47,576 nucleotides of DNA, taken from Candidatus Saccharimonadales bacterium (GTDB lineage: Bacteria; Patescibacteriota; Saccharimonadia; Saccharimonadales; JANWIN01). The notes beneath the pieces are model-generated. The model did not search any database. It saw nothing but the letters and a program-made list of their open reading frames with translations, and was not told the origin of the DNA. A program made the translations under genes and the position numbers. Positions 6,861-37,189 of the stretch are shown piece after piece. The stretch is taken from assembly GCA_025449905.1 (NCBI GenBank), contig JANWIN010000006.1, positions 1 to 47,576 of the forward strand. The letters are read 5' to 3'. The number at the start of each line of letters is the position of its first letter. The first letter of the stretch is position 1.

Positions 6861-7325
6861 ATGGCTGATGTTCCAGTTGAAGATATTAAAAAGCTGCGTG
6901 AATTAACAGGGGTAGGTATTACCGATGCCAAGAAAGCGCTGGTTGAGTCGGCGGGTGATTTTGACAAAGCCCTAGCTGCAATGCGCAAAAAAGGCTTAAC
7001 CAAAGCCGAAAAGCGGAGTGAGCGCGAAGCCCGAGCAGGTTTGATTGGTACATATAGCCATGACGGACGTATAGGTGTGCTGGTAGAAGTTAACTGCGAG
7101 ACTGATTTTGTTGCTAAAACCGATGAATTTAAGGAGTTAGTCAAGGATTTAACACTACACATTACTTCAATGGAGCCTAAAGATGAAAAAGATTTACTAG
7201 AACAGCCGTTTGTTAAAAATCCAGACCAAACAGTAGGCGATTATGTCAAAGAACACATTGCTAAATTGGGTGAAAACATAGTTGTTAGGCGTTTCAATAG
7301 AATGGCTTTAGGTGAGGTGGAGTAG
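6861..7325 (+). CDS. tsf: Elongation factor Ts, minimal 154-aa form
   Basis: UBA-like N-terminus (IKKLRELTGVGITDAKKAL), then LVEVNCETDFVAKT and LGENIVVRRF. The central coiled-coil segment of longer EF-Ts proteins is absent. Confidence 0.9.
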   Translation: MADVPVEDIKKLRELTGVGITDAKKALVESAGDFDKALAAMRKKGLTKAEKRSEREARAGLIGTYSHDGRIGVLVEVNCETDFVAKTDEFKELVKDLTLHITSMEPKDEKDLLEQPFVKNPDQTVGDYVKEHIAKLGENIVVRRFNRMALGEVE

Positions 7326-12569: not shown

Positions 12570-14096
12570 ATGAAGTGGTTAGAAAAAATTGTTGATGAAA
12601 TTGAAAAAGCTCACCCAACGGGTGAGATTGTAGTTTCTTCCGGCGTAACGCCTTCCGGTAAATACCACTTGGGTACGTTGCGTGAAGTATTAACAGCGGA
12701 AGTTATTGCCAGAGAACTTAAAAATCGTGACAGGAAAAGTAAGCATATTCACATTGCAGATGACTTTGATGTGTTTCGAAAGGTCCCAGTTGGCATTCCA
12801 GCTGACTATGAAAAATATCTAGGCAAACCGTTAGTAGATATTCCGGCACCAGATAATTCAAGTAGTTCTTATGCTGATTACTACTTAAGTGACTTAAATG
12901 AAGCAAAAAAACAATTAAATCTCGACATGGAAATAATTCGTGCCAGCGAAAAATATAGAGCCGGATTTTTTAAAGAAGTTATTGAAAAGGCTTTATCGAA
13001 AGCCGACGATATCAAGAAAATACTAGAAGAAATTTCTGGCCGAAAACTAGGCAATGATTACTCACCAATTCAAGTAGTAGAGGAAGGTTACTTAAAAAAT
13101 CGAGAATTTAGAGCTATTGATACGAACAAAGGCGTAATAACTTATCTAGATCCTAAAGGCGTGGAGCAATCCGTAGACTACACAAAGGGGAAAGTAAAAC
13201 TGAACTGGCGTATAGACTGGCCGGCGCGCTGGTCGCTAATGAAGGTTAATGTAGAGCCTTTTGGGAGGGATCATGCTACTAAAGGCGGGTCTTACGACAC
13301 AGGTGTTGGGATAGTAAAAAAGGTATTTGATGCCAAGCCGCCCCTGCCAGTACCTTACAACTTCATCAACCGGACTGGTGATACTAAAAAAATGAGTAAA
13401 AGCGCCGGAGAAACCATAACTATATCAGACTTACTAAGGTTTTTGCCCGTAGAAGTAGTTTGGTATTTTATGTTGCGCTTCTCACCCGATAAGCTTTTAT
13501 TTTTTGATGACGGTCCAACATTTATTAGGCTGATGGACGAATACAAGGAACTGCTTGCTAAGACCAATAGGACAGCAGAAGAACAGAAGCTGCTTGAATT
13601 GTGCCGATATGGACAAAAAGAATCTTTAGTTAGTAGGGTGCCTTACTCTCACATGGTAAATGCCTATCAAGCCTCATTAAAAGACGGCTCTAAGGCTATG
13701 GATGTAATACGACGAACTGAACATGGCGAGGTGGTAGATGAAGATAAGGACAAAATAAAAGCTGAATTTGTCGGTATAGACCACTGGCTTGAAAAAGGTG
13801 CGCCAGAGGAGGTTAAATTTCAGCTTGCTAAAAGTTTTGATGTTACAAAATTGAGCGACCAAGAAAAAGAATTTCTGTCAATGCTAGCGCAAAAAGCTTC
13901 GGCGCTGCCAAAAAACGCGGAGGGAGAGGCTTTTCACAAAGCGATTTACGACTCATTAAATGGATTTGAACCAAAACAAGCTTTCAAGACCCTGTATCGT
14001 GTATTAATTAATAAAGATGAGGGTCCGCGAGCTGGGTGGTTTCTAAGTATTTTAGATCGTGACTGGCTGATAAAACGCTTAAAGCTCGAGGCTTAG
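12570..14096 (+). CDS. lysK: Class I lysyl-tRNA synthetase
   Basis: Class I HIGH-like (HLGT) and KMSKS motifs in a 508-aa protein. The sequence resembles archaeal/spirochaete-type LysRS, not class II LysS. Confidence 0.9.
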   Translation: MKWLEKIVDEIEKAHPTGEIVVSSGVTPSGKYHLGTLREVLTAEVIARELKNRDRKSKHIHIADDFDVFRKVPVGIPADYEKYLGKPLVDIPAPDNSSSSYADYYLSDLNEAKKQLNLDMEIIRASEKYRAGFFKEVIEKALSKADDIKKILEEISGRKLGNDYSPIQVVEEGYLKNREFRAIDTNKGVITYLDPKGVEQSVDYTKGKVKLNWRIDWPARWSLMKVNVEPFGRDHATKGGSYDTGVGIVKKVFDAKPPLPVPYNFINRTGDTKKMSKSAGETITISDLLRFLPVEVVWYFMLRFSPDKLLFFDDGPTFIRLMDEYKELLAKTNRTAEEQKLLELCRYGQKESLVSRVPYSHMVNAYQASLKDGSKAMDVIRRTEHGEVVDEDKDKIKAEFVGIDHWLEKGAPEEVKFQLAKSFDVTKLSDQEKEFLSMLAQKASALPKNAEGEAFHKAIYDSLNGFEPKQAFKTLYRVLINKDEGPRAGWFLSILDRDWLIKRLKLEA

Positions 14097-14098
14097 CA

Positions 14099-14542
14099 GT
14101 GAGCAAAAAGATAATTACTCTTTGTTCAAGTGCTAATTTCTATAAGCATGTTGGTGAGATTGCAGATGAGCTAGAAAATCGCGGTTACAAGGTAATAATT
14201 CCACGAACAGCCGAGATAATGCGCAAAAGCGGCGACTATGATGTAGCCAAAGTAAAAACCTGGATTAAAAACAAAGATGATTTGCCTAAAAAGCGGAAGC
14301 TTATGGACGGGCATTTTGCCGAGGTAGAAAAGGCCGACGCTATCCTAGTCGTAAATGATGAAAAACACGGAACTCCAGGTTATATCGGACCTAATGGCCT
14401 AATGGAGATGGCTTTGGCCTACTATTTAAAGAAACCTATCTATATCTTAAATAGCGTAAAGAATGACTCAAATATTTATGAAGAAGTCTATGGCATGGGT
14501 AATCTAATATTGGATGGGGACATTTCAAAAATTAAGTTATGA
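14099..14542 (+). CDS. Nucleoside 2-deoxyribosyltransferase-like (Rossmann-like) small protein
   Basis: The pattern ITLCSS...ADAILVVN...G..GLMEMALAYYLKKPIYIL resembles the Nuc_deoxyrib_tr-like fold. Recognition is by motif only. Confidence 0.4.
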   Translation: MSKKIITLCSSANFYKHVGEIADELENRGYKVIIPRTAEIMRKSGDYDVAKVKTWIKNKDDLPKKRKLMDGHFAEVEKADAILVVNDEKHGTPGYIGPNGLMEMALAYYLKKPIYILNSVKNDSNIYEEVYGMGNLILDGDISKIKL

Positions 14543-15027
14543 GAACTGAAAAAGCGATTTTTGCAGCCGGATGTTTTTGGGGAGTCCAGGATTATTTTGA
14601 TCAAATCCCGGGGGTTATTAATACAGTCGTAGGCTACACTGGCGGGCACACCAAAAACCCATCCTATGAAGAGGTGTGTACCCATACTACCGGGCATGCT
14701 GAGGCCACAGAAGTTGAGTTTGATCCCCGGAAAGTAAGCTTCGAGACTTTGGTTAAGCAGTTTTTTAGAATGCATGACCCCACACAACTAAACAGGCAAG
14801 GACCAGATATCGGCGATAGTTATCGTTCAGCAATTTTTTATTTTGATGAGGGGCAAAAACAAGCAGCCGAAGCTATTAAAAAAAGTGTTCAATCAAACTT
14901 TAAAAAACCAATTGTTACAGAGACTTCAAAAGCCACTGAGTTTTACGCGGCCGAAGATTATCATCAAAAATATGTCCAAAAAACTGGGCGCGGTGCCTGT
15001 CACATCCCATTTACGCCGATAAAGTAA
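14539..15027 (+). CDS. msrA: Peptide methionine (S)-sulfoxide reductase MsrA
   Basis: GCFWG active-site motif and YHQKY near the C-terminus. ATGA overlap with the upstream gene. Confidence 0.95.
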   Translation: MRTEKAIFAAGCFWGVQDYFDQIPGVINTVVGYTGGHTKNPSYEEVCTHTTGHAEATEVEFDPRKVSFETLVKQFFRMHDPTQLNRQGPDIGDSYRSAIFYFDEGQKQAAEAIKKSVQSNFKKPIVTETSKATEFYAAEDYHQKYVQKTGRGACHIPFTPIK

Positions 15028-15038
15028 ATTGCTACTGC

Positions 15039-15067: not shown

Positions 15068-15076
15068 AAGGACAAG

Positions 15077-15895
15077 ATGGCTAGGAAGAAAACCAAAGCT
15101 AAGGCTAAAAAACCGACTCAGAAAGCTGAACTTGCAAGCTTGAACCGCTGGAATGCCATTTTTGGAATTGTCTTTTTGCAGGAGATAATCTTACTTTTAA
15201 TCTTAAGCCGAGATTATAGCCTACCGGTAACAACCAATTACTTGGCGGTTGATAGTTTAGCTTCACAAACAGCCGATAAAACTGTTTGGGCGCCAGCCTC
15301 ACATCATTTGTTTGATATTAATCTAATATTTTTGGTTGCGGCCATTTTAGCAGTCGGGGCGCTAACTCATCTTTTGGCGGCTAGTCTTTACAGAAAACGT
15401 TACGAAGCTGACCTAAAACAAGGCGTAAATAAGCTGCGCTGGCTGACCCATATTGTTGGTGGGGGATTAGTTTTAATTACCCTAGCTTTAATGAATGGGG
15501 TTTATGACTTCTCAACATTATTGGCTATATTTGCTCTGGTAGAAGTTGCCGGCCTGTTTGGATTATTGGTAGAAGCCAGACCCGAAATTAAGCGTCATCC
15601 GAGGGCGGCAACCAAGCTGGCTTTTGTGGCCTTTATAACGCCGTGGCTAATTATTAGCTTTTACCTATTCGGTGCCCAGATATTTGGCGATAGATCGCTA
15701 CCGGCGCATGTTTATTGGCTAGATATCAGCATCTTTGTATTGTTTGTCTTAAAACTACTCAATAACCACCTACACAAAATTAAATACAATCGCTGGGCAG
15801 ACTACTTATTCATGGAAAAAACTTACCTGGTTTTGAGTTTCTTAGTAAAATCAGCCATTGCTTGGCAAATTTTCTTCGCCGTCCTCAATCCATAA
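15077..15895 (+). CDS. Heliorhodopsin-family 7-TM protein. The retinal lysine is conserved but the canonical counterion Glu is replaced.
   Basis: Colinear with my recollection of heliorhodopsin 48C12:
- TM1: LNRWNAIFGIVFLQEIILLLILSRDYSLPVTTNYL vs LQNFNRIAGVFHLLQMLAVLALANDFALPMTGTYL.
- TM3: NKLRWLTH vs NIFRWVEY.
- TM7: YLVLSFLVKSAIAWQIF vs YIVLSLVAKSALAWQIF.
The Lys codon is at 15848-15850. Confidence 0.82.
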   Translation: MARKKTKAKAKKPTQKAELASLNRWNAIFGIVFLQEIILLLILSRDYSLPVTTNYLAVDSLASQTADKTVWAPASHHLFDINLIFLVAAILAVGALTHLLAASLYRKRYEADLKQGVNKLRWLTHIVGGGLVLITLALMNGVYDFSTLLAIFALVEVAGLFGLLVEARPEIKRHPRAATKLAFVAFITPWLIISFYLFGAQIFGDRSLPAHVYWLDISIFVLFVLKLLNNHLHKIKYNRWADYLFMEKTYLVLSFLVKSAIAWQIFFAVLNP

Positions 15896-15915: not shown

Positions 15916-16686
15916 ATGGCCTACACAAGAAGTCCGGCTTATGAACCAGGGCAGAGCGAGTCTTTTAAAATATCGCGTTCAAAAATTGAGTTATTTATGC
16001 AGTGTCCGCGCTGTTTTTGGCTGGACGGGCGGCTTAAAATTAAACGCCCTAGCGGCCCGCCGTTTCAAATCAACAAAGCTATCGACGAATTATTAAAAAA
16101 AGAATTCGATTCCTATAGAGCAAAGGGTAAACCGCACCCGATTATGGTTAAAAACAAGATTAAAGCCATCCCATTTGCCCACGACGATCTAAAGACTTGG
16201 CGAACAAATTTTACAGGCGTTGCAACTTTGCACAAACCCACAAATTTATATGTTTTTGGCGCCATTGACGATATTTGGGTGGATGACAAAGGCCAAGTTA
16301 TTGTTGTCGATTACAAAGCCACCGCCAAGCAAAGCGATGTAACACTCGATGCCGACTGGCAAATAAGCTATAAGCGCCAGATGGAAGTCTATCAGTGGCT
16401 GCTCAGAGCCAACGCCTTTAATGTCAGCGACACGGCTTATTTTGTTTACACCAACGGTCGTTTGGACTTAGATGGTTTTTTTGACAAAGTGGAGTTTAGG
16501 ACCAAAATTATCCCCTACAAAGGCAGTGATAAATGGATTGAGCCAACGCTAGCTAAGATGAAAGAATGTTTAGAAGGGGATATGCCAGCTGTCGGCACAG
16601 CGGCCATGGGCGGCGAATGCGATTATTGTCTTTACGCCAAAGCCCGCACCGAACTAACACTGAATCACGTAAATAAAAAGAAATAA
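15916..16686 (+). CDS. PD-(D/E)XK nuclease of the Cas4/RecB-like type with a four-Cys (putative Fe-S) arrangement
   Basis: N-terminal CPRC and C-terminal CDYC cysteine pairs, an IDDIW...VVDYK motif (D...D/ExK), and a QMEVYQ (QxxxY) motif. TACAAT at 15903-15908 lies 7 nt from the ATG. Confidence 0.75.
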   Translation: MAYTRSPAYEPGQSESFKISRSKIELFMQCPRCFWLDGRLKIKRPSGPPFQINKAIDELLKKEFDSYRAKGKPHPIMVKNKIKAIPFAHDDLKTWRTNFTGVATLHKPTNLYVFGAIDDIWVDDKGQVIVVDYKATAKQSDVTLDADWQISYKRQMEVYQWLLRANAFNVSDTAYFVYTNGRLDLDGFFDKVEFRTKIIPYKGSDKWIEPTLAKMKECLEGDMPAVGTAAMGGECDYCLYAKARTELTLNHVNKKK

Positions 16687-16690
16687 ATCG

Positions 16691-17575
16691 ATGAACTATG
16701 ACTTTTCTCCTCTAAATTACGATAAGAAGCTATTAAAGTATGGTTTATTAACAATAGGCGGGTTCTTTGCACTATTGTTTATTGGCGAGCTGATTGATTT
16801 TAAGTACCTAAGCTTGTTAGGCATTCCTTTGATTATTTTTTTTATAGTCTTAGTTGGAAAAAGAGAACCACTTAGACAGAGAGCAATAGCAGAATTTGCA
16901 AAACTGAATAATTTGCAAGCATTAAGTGACTCAGAAAAAATGGACGACGTGCCAAGAAGGTTTGAGAGCATCAAAAGAGGCAAAGATGTTTCAAATGGAT
17001 TTAAAATTAAAGGTGCTAAATGGCCAATTGATATATTAGAATTTGCTCATTATGAAGGGAAAAGCAATTCATTAAATGATTATCACTTTACGATTACGAC
17101 CTTCAAAACAGATAAAGAATATCCCAATCTGTATTTGGATAGTACGTCTAACGGTGCGGACTTACTTATCTACCAAAATCAGCAAAAACAGTCATTGGAG
17201 GGCGACTTCGACAAACATTTTACTCTTTATGTGCCCGAAGATTCAGGATCATTATCTCGCGCTGTTTTATCGCCGGATATAATGCAAACAATGGTTACTT
17301 CAGGTAGTGACTACGACATTGAAATAGATGGCAAAAAAATATCAATAGCTGGTCTCGGAGACCACTTTAACAGTAAGGATTTACCTGCCCTCCTTTCGTT
17401 CACTACTTTAATGCAAAAAGAATTTAGTCACCTTGATAAGTCATGGCAGCCAGTTTATGACAATCAAGGTAAGCCGCATCTGTTAAGCTCGTCGATCATT
17501 ACAAAAAAGAAGTTAGTGCAAACCATATCAATCGTCATGATTGTAATTTGGCTTTACTTTATTGTATTCAGCTAA
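16691..17575 (+). CDS. Membrane protein, DUF3137-like: two N-terminal TM helices and one C-terminal TM helix
   Basis: Hydrophobic segments at both ends. LEGDFDKHFTLY...VLSPDIMQTM resembles the DUF3137 core from memory. The gene is visibly AT-richer than its neighbours. Confidence 0.4.
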   Translation: MNYDFSPLNYDKKLLKYGLLTIGGFFALLFIGELIDFKYLSLLGIPLIIFFIVLVGKREPLRQRAIAEFAKLNNLQALSDSEKMDDVPRRFESIKRGKDVSNGFKIKGAKWPIDILEFAHYEGKSNSLNDYHFTITTFKTDKEYPNLYLDSTSNGADLLIYQNQQKQSLEGDFDKHFTLYVPEDSGSLSRAVLSPDIMQTMVTSGSDYDIEIDGKKISIAGLGDHFNSKDLPALLSFTTLMQKEFSHLDKSWQPVYDNQGKPHLLSSSIITKKKLVQTISIVMIVIWLYFIVFS

Positions 17576-30750: not shown

Positions 30751-31293
30751 ATGGACCAATCTGCACCGCCAACGCCAGCGCAAAATTTAGAGCGCCAGCG
30801 TAAAATCCTGCTGGTCGAAGACGATGATAACCTGGCAAACGTTTATTTAACTCGTCTTAAAGCTGAAGGTTTTGATGTTAAGCGAGTGCCAAACGGCGAA
30901 GATGCTTTAGCCAGCGCTATCGAATATCGGCCGGACTTAATTTTACTCGATGTTATGATGCCTAAGGTTAGTGGCTTTGATGTGCTCGATATTCTTAGAA
31001 ACACACCAGAGACGGCCAACATGAAGGTTATTATGCTTACTGCCTTGAGCCAGGAAAGCGACAAGCAACGAGCCAATTCGCTAGGAGTTGATGATTATTT
31101 AGTAAAGTCACAAGTAGTAATTGCCGATGTCGTAGAGCGTATAAAGCATCATTTAGGCCTAGAACAAATAGCTGGGGCGCAAGTAGCCCCCGGTCAGACA
31201 CACGATCAACCAATTGCTCCTCAGCCCGCCCAGGTATCACCGGCACCGCAAACTCCAGCAGCCTCACAAACTCCCCCAACCCCAGCCCAGTGA
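30751..31293 (+). CDS. Stand-alone response-regulator receiver domain with a P/Q/A-rich C-terminal tail and no output domain
   Basis: Canonical REC residues are present (VEDDD, LILLDVMMP, IMLTA, LVKS). The last roughly 45 aa are low-complexity (APQPAQVSPAPQTPAASQTPPTPAQ). Confidence 0.85.
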   Translation: MDQSAPPTPAQNLERQRKILLVEDDDNLANVYLTRLKAEGFDVKRVPNGEDALASAIEYRPDLILLDVMMPKVSGFDVLDILRNTPETANMKVIMLTALSQESDKQRANSLGVDDYLVKSQVVIADVVERIKHHLGLEQIAGAQVAPGQTHDQPIAPQPAQVSPAPQTPAASQTPPTPAQ

Positions 31294-36814: not shown

Positions 36815-37189
36815 ATGGCTAAGATTTTATTACTGGAACCGGATGCTTTGCTGGCTAAAAATACCCTCGGCGCATTAAAAAAGTCTGGTCATAAAATCAG
36901 CTGGCAGAGTGGTGCTCAACCTGCCATCAGCGCAATTGATAAACAAATACCGGACCTTATAATTATGGAACTACAGTTAACTGGGCATAGCGGTGTGGAA
37001 TTTTTGTACGAGCTTCAATCCTACCCGGAATGGCAAACTATCCCGGTCATTATTTACAGCCATATACCAAATGCGGGGGAGCCTGCTAAACATTGGCAGC
37101 AATTGGGTGTAGTAGCCTATTACTACAAGCCGCACACTAAACTAAAAGAACTGGCTGATTCTATTGACCACATTCTGATGACAGCATGA
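36815..37189 (+). CDS. Pseudo-receiver domain protein with the phospho-acceptor Asp replaced by Glu
   Basis: Receiver-fold pattern: LLLEPD, DLIIMELQL (Glu52, codon 36968-36970, at the Asp57-equivalent), IIYS, YYKP. Confidence 0.7.
   Translation: MAKILLLEPDALLAKNTLGALKKSGHKISWQSGAQPAISAIDKQIPDLIIMELQLTGHSGVEFLYELQSYPEWQTIPVIIYSHIPNAGEPAKHWQQLGVVAYYYKPHTKLKELADSIDHILMTA

Follow-up and report, generated by a model that had tools for sequence, protein, structure and literature searches.

A heliorhodopsin of Candidatus Saccharimonadales that keeps the retinal lysine and lacks a carboxylate at the counterion position

What becomes of a heliorhodopsin (HeR) that keeps the lysine to which retinal is attached and has lost the carboxylate that serves as its counterion? 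The question is raised by a gene in contig JANWIN010000006.1 of a Candidatus Saccharimonadales bacterium (GenBank assembly GCA_025449905.1), of which we analysed positions 1 to 47,576 of the forward strand; this whole stretch of 47,576 nucleotides (nt) is referred to here as the window. The gene encodes an intact HeR-fold protein, is a vertically inherited orthologue in a fixed genomic slot, and keeps the lysine and its SxxxK motif with no carboxylate near the Schiff base. The literature searched contains no report of a natural HeR that has the lysine but no counterion. Our leading, though tentative, interpretation is that the protein is a retinal pigment that needs an exogenous anion as a surrogate counterion. 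A preliminary description of the same DNA had proposed either a re-wired cavity, in which new carboxylates might stand in for the counterion, or a retinal-free derivative. Both broad options survive, the carboxylate replacement does not, and our evidence does not separate the two options decisively.

The gene and the putative signals ahead of it are as follows.

15077..15895, + strand: HeR gene, ATG to stop, 272 amino acids, seven transmembrane (TM) helices and a β-hairpin in the AB loop

15039–15067, + strand: promoter-like TTGAGC-17-TATAGT, a consensus match only, of a type not enriched over shuffled sequences

15068–15072, + strand: possible AAGGA ribosome-binding site, 5 nt before the ATG, a consensus match only

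The start at 15077 is favoured over a TTG at 15029 because the ATG gives the basic N-terminus MARKKTKAKAKK, which agrees with the N-termini of homologues; the longer frame is unlikely to represent the true start. The protein belongs to the HeR family, with a match far above chance. It matches Pfam PF18761 over the entire profile (positions 1–242 of 242; E=3.2e-48, 164.6 bits against a cutoff of 26.7) and NCBIfam NF038020 “HeR” (168.9 bits against a cutoff of 100), and a phmmer search of the PDB finds TaHeR (6is6, 8e-36) and HeR 48C12 (6su3/9ljj, 8e-30). An AlphaFold2 (AF2) model built with 29 homologues (predicted local distance difference test score, pLDDT, 86.5; predicted template-modelling score, pTM, 0.82) has seven helices, with strands 48–58 and 71–82 between TM1 and TM2 forming the long AB-loop β-hairpin. 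In Foldseek, the predicted model superposes on 6is6 and 6su3 with TM-scores of 0.82–0.89 and a root-mean-square deviation of 2.2–2.7 Å, and scores only 0.5–0.6 against type-1 rhodopsins. There are 18 Lys and Arg residues in the N-terminal tail and the BC, DE and FG loops and 3 in the AB, CD and EF loops, a positive-inside count that would fit the inverted N-in/C-out topology of HeRs. The colinear seven-helix homologue of the preliminary description is thus upheld both by profile comparison with the family and 6SU3/6IS6 and by structure prediction.

Which residues of the retinal site does this protein keep? We rebuilt the 48C12 sequence from the HMMER alignment, checked its numbering against 17 published positions, and mapped residues by MAFFT on two independent homologue sets, in agreement with the pairwise HMMER alignments. 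Below, three-letter residue names refer to the window protein and the 48C12 equivalent is given in brackets. The T/H clade consists of the window protein and two relatives, P0002 and P0003, all three of which have Lys258.

15173..15184, + strand: TM1, Phe33 (H23) and Glu36 (Q26); Glu36 is Gln in P0002 and P0003

15356..15358, + strand: Gly94 (S76), S76 being the second serine that stabilises E107

15368..15370, + strand: His98 (H80), kept; Tyr in P0003 and Arg or Lys in lysine-less orthologues

15437..15451, + strand: TM3, Arg121-Trp122-Leu123-Thr124-His125, the RWVEY of 48C12, in gapless alignments

15446–15448, + strand: Thr124 (counterion E107); codons ACC, ACA and ACC in the three clade members

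15458..15466, + strand: TM3, Gly128-Gly129-Gly130 (S111-S112-S113), common to a whole “GGG” subgroup

15542..15544, + strand: TM4, Glu156 (A139), found throughout the subgroup and not a novelty of the T/H clade

15572..15574, + strand: Glu166 (E149), kept; in the conserved cytoplasmic cluster R121/E166/E247/Y109/N26/N118

15752..15766, + strand: TM6, Lys226 (F209) and Asn230 (Q213), both clade-specific and polar or cationic

15815..15817, + strand: Glu247 (E230), kept; assigned to the cavity from the composition in PMC7049168

15836..15850, + strand: TM7, Ser254-Phe-Leu-Val-Lys258 (S237 to K241), the SxxxK motif, intact

15848–15850, + strand: Lys258 (K241), kept; codons AAA, AAA and AAG across the three clade members

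Also kept are Ser254 (S237), Asn118 (N101), Arg121 (R104), Trp122 (W105), Asn26 (N16), Tyr109 (Y92), Phe223 (F206) and Trp190 (W173). Further changes are His125 (Y108; codons CAT, CAT and CAC in the clade), Val132 (M115), Val155 (N138), Ala158 (M141), Gly159 (I142), Asp216 (I199) and His233 (Q216). All seven residues that the preliminary description had listed as kept (K241, S237, H80, N101, R104, W105 and E149) are confirmed by alignment, as are its RWVEY to RWLTH change, with Thr for E107 and His for Y108, its Phe for H23, and its new glutamates at the Q26 equivalent (Glu36) and beside the N138 equivalent (Glu156, next to Val155). It had overlooked Lys226, Asn230 and the run of three glycines in TM3.

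A shift in alignment register, which the preliminary description had named as the way a carboxylate might be restored to the counterion position, is ruled out. Residues 119–143 contain no Asp or Glu, leaving TM3 without an acidic residue, and hence no register shift can place a carboxylate there; neither HMMER nor MAFFT opens a gap within RW(L/V/F)(T/E)(H/Y) in any alignment. The alignment of TM6 is also gapless, and the assignment of Lys226 to position 209 is therefore firm.

In 48C12 the protonated Schiff base hydrogen-bonds E107 and S237, S76 and S111 hold E107 in place, and the Schiff-base cavity is lined by E107, H23, H80, S237, E230, Y92, N16, N101 and Y108 (PMC7049168). In the T/H clade, the nearby carboxylate is lost, both supporting serines are Gly, Y108 is His, and position 209 is Lys. 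The family feature of R104 with its partners E149 and E230 is present (Arg121, Glu166, Glu247), and that of a single TM3 Glu held by S76 and S111 is absent (Thr124, Gly94, Gly128). The H23/H80 pair is incomplete, with His98 present and Phe33 for H23; this pair is not strictly defining, since a Chloroflexi HeR without both histidines is still a pigment (10.1101/2021.02.16.431466). The changes specific to the clade are E107T, Y108H, F/M209K and M/Q213N, all at cavity-lining positions and all polar or cationic. Most pocket positions appear smaller (Gly94, Gly128–130, Ala158, Gly159, Val155 and Val132), but Lys226 replaces a Phe or Met.

Position 209 deserves attention. F206 and Q213 of 48C12 correspond to W182 and W189 of bacteriorhodopsin (BR) (PMC7049168). 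From the spacing, F209 would be the equivalent of BR Tyr185, and helical periodicity would place it in the inward-facing arc of 202, 206, 213 and 216. Elsewhere, a basic residue at 209 is found in P0183 (E107, K209 and K241), P0130 (T107, N241) and P0146 (H107, S241), as Arg with E107 and without K241 in P0150 and P0166, and in the lysine-less P0108. This pattern of occurrence suggests that a side chain at 209 can reach residue 107 and the Schiff-base region. Both lysines, 209 and 241, are present in the T/H clade and P0183, and the unrelated P0130 and P0146 combine K209 with a non-acidic residue 107 and no TM7 lysine. Might the active-site lysine be in the course of moving, with Lys226 on TM6 as an alternative or additional attachment site for retinal? 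We regard this as highly improbable; if true, a retinal Schiff base on helix 6 would mean a different chromophore geometry for a microbial rhodopsin.

An alternative explanation is that the protein is a canonical pigment whose protein counterion has been relocated, with Glu247, Glu166, Glu36 or Glu156 acting through water. Apart from Glu166, in the R121/E149 cluster, Glu247 would be the only carboxylate left in the Schiff-base cavity; its equivalent E230 lines the cavity of 48C12 (PMC7049168) and is retained here. Moreover, lysine-bearing homologues without E107 have a TM3 carboxylate moved to position 108 (P0092) or 111 (P0141, P0169), and thus counterion relocation does occur in the family. 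Against this, the clade has no carboxylate at positions 76, 108, 111 or 237, and E230 and E149 are already salt-bridged to or otherwise engaged with R104 (PMC7049168, PMC9726877). Q26 of 48C12 connects to the cavity solely via His23 and a water molecule (PMC9726877), and in the clade that link is Phe or Leu; Glu36 is itself not conserved, being Gln in both relatives, and we rejected it as a new counterion. Glu156 was rejected as a clade-specific compensating carboxylate: it is found across the subgroup, in orthologues that have both E107 and K241 (E+K) and in lysine-less orthologues alike. The idea that new carboxylates replace the counterion is therefore not borne out, with Glu36 present only in the window protein and Glu156 predating the Glu to Thr change. 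Relocation as a whole is improbable, less so than an attachment site on TM6.

How might a HeR work with such a cavity? We propose, tentatively, that the Schiff-base cavity, formerly anionic, has become cationic and polar. Retinal scavenged from the host or the environment would be taken up onto Lys258, and the protonated Schiff base would be held by an exogenous anion (chloride, or one of the nitrate or acetate type) in the cytoplasm-facing cavity. Thr124, His125, Lys226, Ser254 and His98 would be the likely anion ligands. Colour and photocycle would then depend on anions, and output would pass through the cytoplasmic R121/E166/E247/Y109/N26 cluster, all of which is conserved.

Several observations are consistent with this proposal. 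The lysine, Ser237, W105, F206, W173, P172 and H80 are retained in the T/H clade. Judged from the alignment, the changes specific to the clade affect only cavity-lining positions and bring in polar or cationic residues, unlike random hydrophobic decay, and the pocket residues appear to have shrunk (to Gly, Ala and Val), not to have been filled in as in FArhodopsins. The mutants 48C12 E107A and E107Q and TaHeR E108A are still pigments, in which a needed or bound anion keeps the Schiff base protonated (PMC9385722, PMC7049168), and at pH 4.5 TaHeR has chloride in its Schiff-base cavity (PMC9385722, PMC7049168). The published prediction is that exogenous anions will be taken up by most HeRs whose counterion position is neutral, as they are by BR D85S/T (PMC9385722). 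Retinal scavenging is documented for HeRs and for type-1 rhodopsins of Saccharibacteria (PMC9296517). Saccharibacteria are without retinal synthesis (Jaffe 2022, PMC9296517), which supports the earlier suggestion that the host probably cannot make retinal, and nothing for its synthesis was detected in the window. Carotenoid, blh and type-1 rhodopsin genes were not detected among the 49 window open reading frames (ORFs) scanned with Pfam, five of which had no Pfam match; the earlier report of no carotenoid or blh genes in the window stands.

How unusual is the combination of a neutral residue 107 and an intact lysine? A word-indexed search of 5.8 billion clusters found RWLTH with the lysine in three 90%-identity clusters only. 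The two other RWLTH proteins, P0002 (74% identical) and P0003 (68%), fall into the query's own cluster when 1.84 billion representatives at 50% identity are scanned exhaustively with HMMER. An exact-sequence look-up of the window protein found no record. A survey for Thr and His at E107 and Y108, as the preliminary description had advised, thus shows the pair to be rare, and no described clade of this type was found in the literature searched. A profile search from the homologue alignment gave at least 16 matches, at least 9 of them new, and a profile scan of genome contigs gave one locus, at 38% identity.

The wider family was sampled as a set of 180 homologues, composed of the best 150 of 1241 HeR representatives and closer hits, which divide as follows.

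Glu or Asp at 107, with lysine: 62

Glu or Asp at 107, without lysine: 29

Neither a carboxylate at 107 nor lysine: 74

Lysine, without a carboxylate at 107: 12

Residue 107 or 241 missing (truncated sequences): 3

Hence the lysine is absent from 103 of these nearest homologues and the 107 carboxylate from 86, and 74 of the latter (86%) lack the lysine as well. Uncharacterised HeR homologues have widely lost the 107 carboxylate, usually together with the lysine. Among the 74 lysine-bearing homologues, 12 are without the carboxylate. Besides the three RWLTH proteins and P0159 (RWITF), these are eight proteins that differ from both types at residue 107; in three of the 12 a carboxylate is shifted, to 108 (P0092) or 111 (P0141, P0169). 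E107, S76, S111 and S237 were highly conserved in all 479 HeRs known in 2020 (Kovalev 2020, PMC7049168). The earlier view that E107 is close to invariant accordingly holds among characterised and canonical HeRs and fails in this wider set. P0023 and P0092 form a second, deeper lysine-bearing lineage without E107, with RWIHA and RWIQE, respectively, and NxxxK in TM7 of both; the Glu at 108 of P0092 suggests a shifted counterion.

N16, Y92, N101, R104, W105, E149 and E230 are 84–96% conserved over all 180 homologues. Together with the 103 that lack the lysine, and the frequency with which the counterion and the lysine are lost together, this conservation argues for a second reading: that the window protein is a HeR-like protein independent of retinal, with a light-independent role, a relaxed Schiff-base site and Lys258 as a relic. 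That role would be exerted through the dimer and AB-hairpin architecture and the cytoplasmic R104/E149/E230/Y92/N16/N101 cluster, and could consist of partner regulation or small-anion binding, possibly in oxidative-stress handling with msrA; Lys226 would occupy or neutralise the former Schiff-base region. We consider this reading quite possible, though short of probable.

Lysine-less HeRs have drawn little comment. No description of lysine-less or naturally counterion-less HeRs was found in the literature searched. One survey discarded lysine-less sequences as possible pseudogenes (10.1101/2021.02.16.431466). In the part available to us, a survey of HeRs in the candidate phyla radiation (CPR) reports only a check for the TM7 SxxxK motif, and that part holds no statement on the counterion position or on lysine-less forms (Chiriac 2022, PMC9166423); a text search of its supplementary tables for TM7 motifs gave no match.

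Is the altered retinal site a peculiarity of one genome? The immediate neighbours of the HeR gene are as follows.

14539..15027, + strand: msrA, the upstream neighbour (Pfam PF01625, E=1e-64)

15916..16686, + strand: PD-(D/E)XK nuclease gene, the downstream neighbour (Pfam PF12705)

The same fixed slot, (LysRS/)msrA–HeR–PD-(D/E)XK nuclease–SerRS–SecA, is found in at least 10 Saccharibacteria contigs, and the named relatives are metagenome-assembled genomes of Candidatus Saccharibacteria or Saccharimonadales. msrA adjoins the HeR orthologue in L002, L003-5, L006, L008, L011/12 and a 371-kb JGI contig, with a spacing of 6–121 nt where the two are co-directional, and the nuclease gene is 3ʹ of the HeR gene in every locus that extends far enough. 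In L010 msrA is absent and a 148-codon ORF takes its place, and the L001 and L007 contigs show only the downstream side of the slot. The proteins of the neighbours are 70–90% identical to their window counterparts, and the HeRs only 38–75%; the HeR genes are thus positional orthologues that evolve fast. At the retinal site they read as follows.

L002 (P0002): RWLTH

L003-5 (P0003): RWLTH; msrA inverted and a small rhodanese gene inserted

L006 (P0006): RWLGY, Lys to Leu

JGI 371-kb contig (P0004): Glu kept, Lys to Val

L007: RWIEY and Lys

L008 and L001: canonical E+K

L010 (P0183): E+K plus K209

L011/12 (P0181): E+K

It appears from these sequences that orthologues in different genomes lose or rewire the counterion and lysine site in different ways: E+K, T+K, E without K, and neither. 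The window protein belongs to a subgroup defined by G111-G112-G113, E139 and D199, which comprises the T/H clade, five E+K lineages (L007, P0181, P0182, P0183 and P0195) and at least three lysine-less lineages (P0004/5/7/8/184, P0006 and P0206). The five E+K lineages keep both residues over 46–82% identity, and therefore the subgroup, Gly-rich pocket included, descends from an E+K ancestor; the subgroup probably still binds retinal. Neighbour joining places the T/H clade beside the E+K lineage L007, as its sister; E107T, Y108H, M209K and M213N therefore arose as a set on the stem of the T/H clade.

Purifying selection on the gene is strong. Comparison of the window gene with L002 and L003 gives a proportion of synonymous differences (pS) of 0.76–0.80, which is saturated, and of nonsynonymous differences (pN) of 0.17–0.20; L002 against L003, the only pair to yield a ratio, has a dN/dS of 0.066. 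The codons for Thr124, His125, Lys226 and Lys258 differ synonymously between clade members. At this depth, the conservation of individual residues is not statistically compelling. We compared the constraint on pocket positions with that on the rest of the protein by Fisher tests. Odds ratios were 0.08 and 0.23 for canonical clades, 0.54–0.59 for the T/H clade (not significant) and 0.49 for the lysine-less clade; since the subgroup's own E+K members give 0.43–0.67, and so are also weakly constrained, the test does not discriminate within the subgroup. A naive-Bayes comparison of K+E with lysine-less proteins at other columns, weak at 70% and 86% in leave-one-out tests, scores the T/H clade at +1 to +2.7, between the group means.

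How do these data bear on the proposal of an anion-dependent pigment? Several points weigh against it. Orthologues in the same slot have lost the lysine (Lys to Val in P0004/5/7/8/184, Lys to Leu in P0006) and remain intact, conserved ORFs, and therefore the function conserved in the lineage needs no Schiff base. Loss of the counterion usually seems to accompany loss of retinal binding, as the 74 of 86 homologues indicate. With 67–81% identity among clade members and 58% between them and the sister lineage, the lysine would be retained by chance with a probability of about 0.5, and the clade's Schiff-base and pocket positions show no greater conservation than other positions. A protonated Schiff base is electrostatically disfavoured by another lysine that faces its region, and outside the T/H clade and P0183 a Lys or Arg at 209 is found only in the lysine-less P0130, P0146, P0150, P0166 and P0108. 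Neutralisation of the counterion in V2HeR3 (E105Q) abolishes visible absorption (PMC9448325). Finally, the geometry of Lys226, Thr124, His125 and Lys258 is predicted from 48C12 and BR equivalences and helical periodicity.

Many of the same data favour the retinal-independent protein: the intact same-slot orthologues without lysine, counterion or both, and the occurrence of basic residues at 209 otherwise mostly in lysine-less members. The pocket constraint of the T/H clade resembles that of its lysine-less sister clade rather than that of canonical clades, but the test does not separate the subgroup's E+K members from the T/H clade either. Some relatives come from Rifle aquifer groundwater assemblies (P0006, RIFCSPHIGHO2; P0003, contig ANAN16-1), and their names may point to an origin in the dark subsurface; the literature gave no habitat information for the sample accessions of relatives. 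FArhodopsins provide a precedent for a lysine kept without retinal binding (10.1101/2025.04.29.651185). Against retinal independence, the clade keeps SxxxK, H80, W105, F206 and W173, which are altered in the truly lysine-less orthologues: these also have S237 to Asn, H80 to Arg or Lys, F206 to Ala or Leu and, in one clade, W105 to Arg. Five subgroup relatives keep E and K over deep divergence, which argues for selected retinal binding. The pocket appears enlarged, not filled, and residues 107, 108, 209 and 213 have changed in a coordinated way, to polar side chains.

A third possibility is that retinal is bound through an unprotonated Schiff base, with a pKa below physiological pH, giving an ultraviolet (UV) or violet HeR absorbing at about 360–400 nm. 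The sole nearby acidic group has gone and a cationic side chain has come in, the V2HeR3 mutant loses its visible absorption, and 48C12 E107A/Q need anions to keep the Schiff base protonated, which implies deprotonation when anions are scarce (PMC9385722). However, no natural UV-absorbing HeR was found in the literature searched, cytoplasmic anions could fill the cavity, and the doubts about retinal binding raised for the anion-dependent pigment apply equally. We consider an unprotonated pigment unlikely.

The surroundings of the gene are those of a typical small-genome CPR segment. The gene order is S2, Ts, RRF, RseP, Rce1-like, PyrH, ProRS, GreA, LysRS, a 147-codon ORF (orf147), MsrA, HeR, PD-(D/E)XK nuclease, a 294-codon ORF (orf294), SerRS, SecA and onward. 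The adjacency of msrA may fit the published link of HeRs to oxidative-stress genes, or may simply be conserved gene order. In the P0003 contigs, where the upstream msrA is on the opposite strand, a gene for an 85-amino-acid rhodanese-domain protein lies directly 3ʹ of the HeR gene with 1-nt spacing (L003, 1403–1660; L004, 1268–1525). The LysRS 5ʹ of the slot is class I (PF01921) in the window (12570–14096), L002, L006 and the JGI contig, and class II (PF00152 and PF01336) at the same position in L010 (4028–5536) and L012 (1569–3548), as if, among related genomes, a non-homologous enzyme had taken over the same place. The 147-amino-acid ORF between LysRS and msrA (14099–14542, + strand) shares 4 nt with the beginning of msrA and matches nothing in Pfam, NCBIfam or the PDB. 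L010 has a 148-amino-acid ORF in the corresponding place, with 62% identity to it; L002 and L006 lack it. The 294-amino-acid ORF between the nuclease gene and SerRS (16691–17575, + strand) has hydrophobic N- and C-terminal segments and no Pfam match; tblastn found no match in any fetched locus, and L006 has no gene at this position. The EF-Ts ORF (6861–7325, + strand) encodes 154 amino acids matching positions 1–76 of 204 of Pfam EF_TS, compared with 199 amino acids in L006 and the JGI contig, and may be shortened, or its start or stop may have been called differently. Two stand-alone response-regulator receiver-domain proteins are encoded 15–21 kb from the HeR gene (30751–31293 and 36815–37189, + strand), and no histidine kinase was detected in the window. 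Two-component genes reportedly occur near HeRs in neighbourhood analyses.

What would either outcome mean? If a pigment forms, it would be the first natural HeR shown to use an exogenous anion, or no counterion, a type-3 counterpart of the step from bacteriorhodopsin to halorhodopsin, and biophysics and tool development would gain a HeR scaffold that depends on anions. If no pigment forms, the protein and its lysine-less same-slot orthologues would represent a HeR scaffold under purifying selection without Schiff-base chemistry. A radiation of lysine-less HeRs in a fixed orthologous slot bears on the unsolved function of HeRs: what stays invariant across all forms is not the chromophore site but the cytoplasmic R104/E149/E230/Y92/N16/N101 cluster. 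At least one HeR survey filtered on the TM7 lysine, and another reports only the SxxxK check; such a filter removes over half of the cluster representatives nearest the window protein.

The closest characterised proteins are 48C12 (6SU3/6SU4/6UH3) and TaHeR (6IS6/7U55), members of the same family with colinear seven TM helices, the AB-loop hairpin and N-in topology, to which the window protein is about 30% identical. It shares with them K241, S237, R104, W105, H80, N101, N16, Y92, E149, E230, F206, W173 and P172. It differs from 48C12 by E107T, Y108H, H23F, S76G, S111-113GGG, M115V, N138V, M141A, I142G, F209K, Q213N and Q216H, and by an extra Glu at 139 and Asp at 199. Nearer in chemistry are the mutants 48C12 E107A/E107Q and TaHeR E108A, which have a neutral counterion position and an intact lysine and, as relayed in PMC9385722 and PMC7049168, bind halide or nitrate, which keeps the Schiff base protonated (Singh 2019). 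Unlike these mutants, the window protein is natural and selectively maintained, has Thr rather than Ala or Gln, adds His125, Lys226 and Asn230, and loses the S76 and S111 hydroxyls; anion binding would apply to it by analogy only.

Halorhodopsin (HR) and BR D85T/D85S, with Thr or Ser at the primary counterion position and an exogenous halide, offer a mechanistic analogy only: they belong to another family of opposite topology, there is no evidence of ion transport in the window protein, and the Ser one turn above the Thr (BR T89, HR S115) is Gly here. Rh-noK, the haloarchaeal opsin-like proteins and the FArhodopsins, which often keep the lysine yet bind no retinal, are scaffolds under selection without canonical retinal chemistry (PMC10308929; 10.1101/2025.04.29.651185). 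All of these are type-1 proteins, whereas the window protein keeps its lysine in a pocket that appears enlarged rather than occluded; by its sequence it would fall outside the lysine-less opsin-like class, although orthologues fall inside. In the same host group HeRs are common, Chiriac 2022 (PMC9166423) recording 80 in Saccharimonadia, and Saccharibacteria with type-1 rhodopsins, which do not synthesise retinal, are thought to scavenge it (Jaffe 2022, PMC9296517). At most, the window protein would function as the HeR mutants with a neutralised counterion do and, by analogy, as halorhodopsin does.

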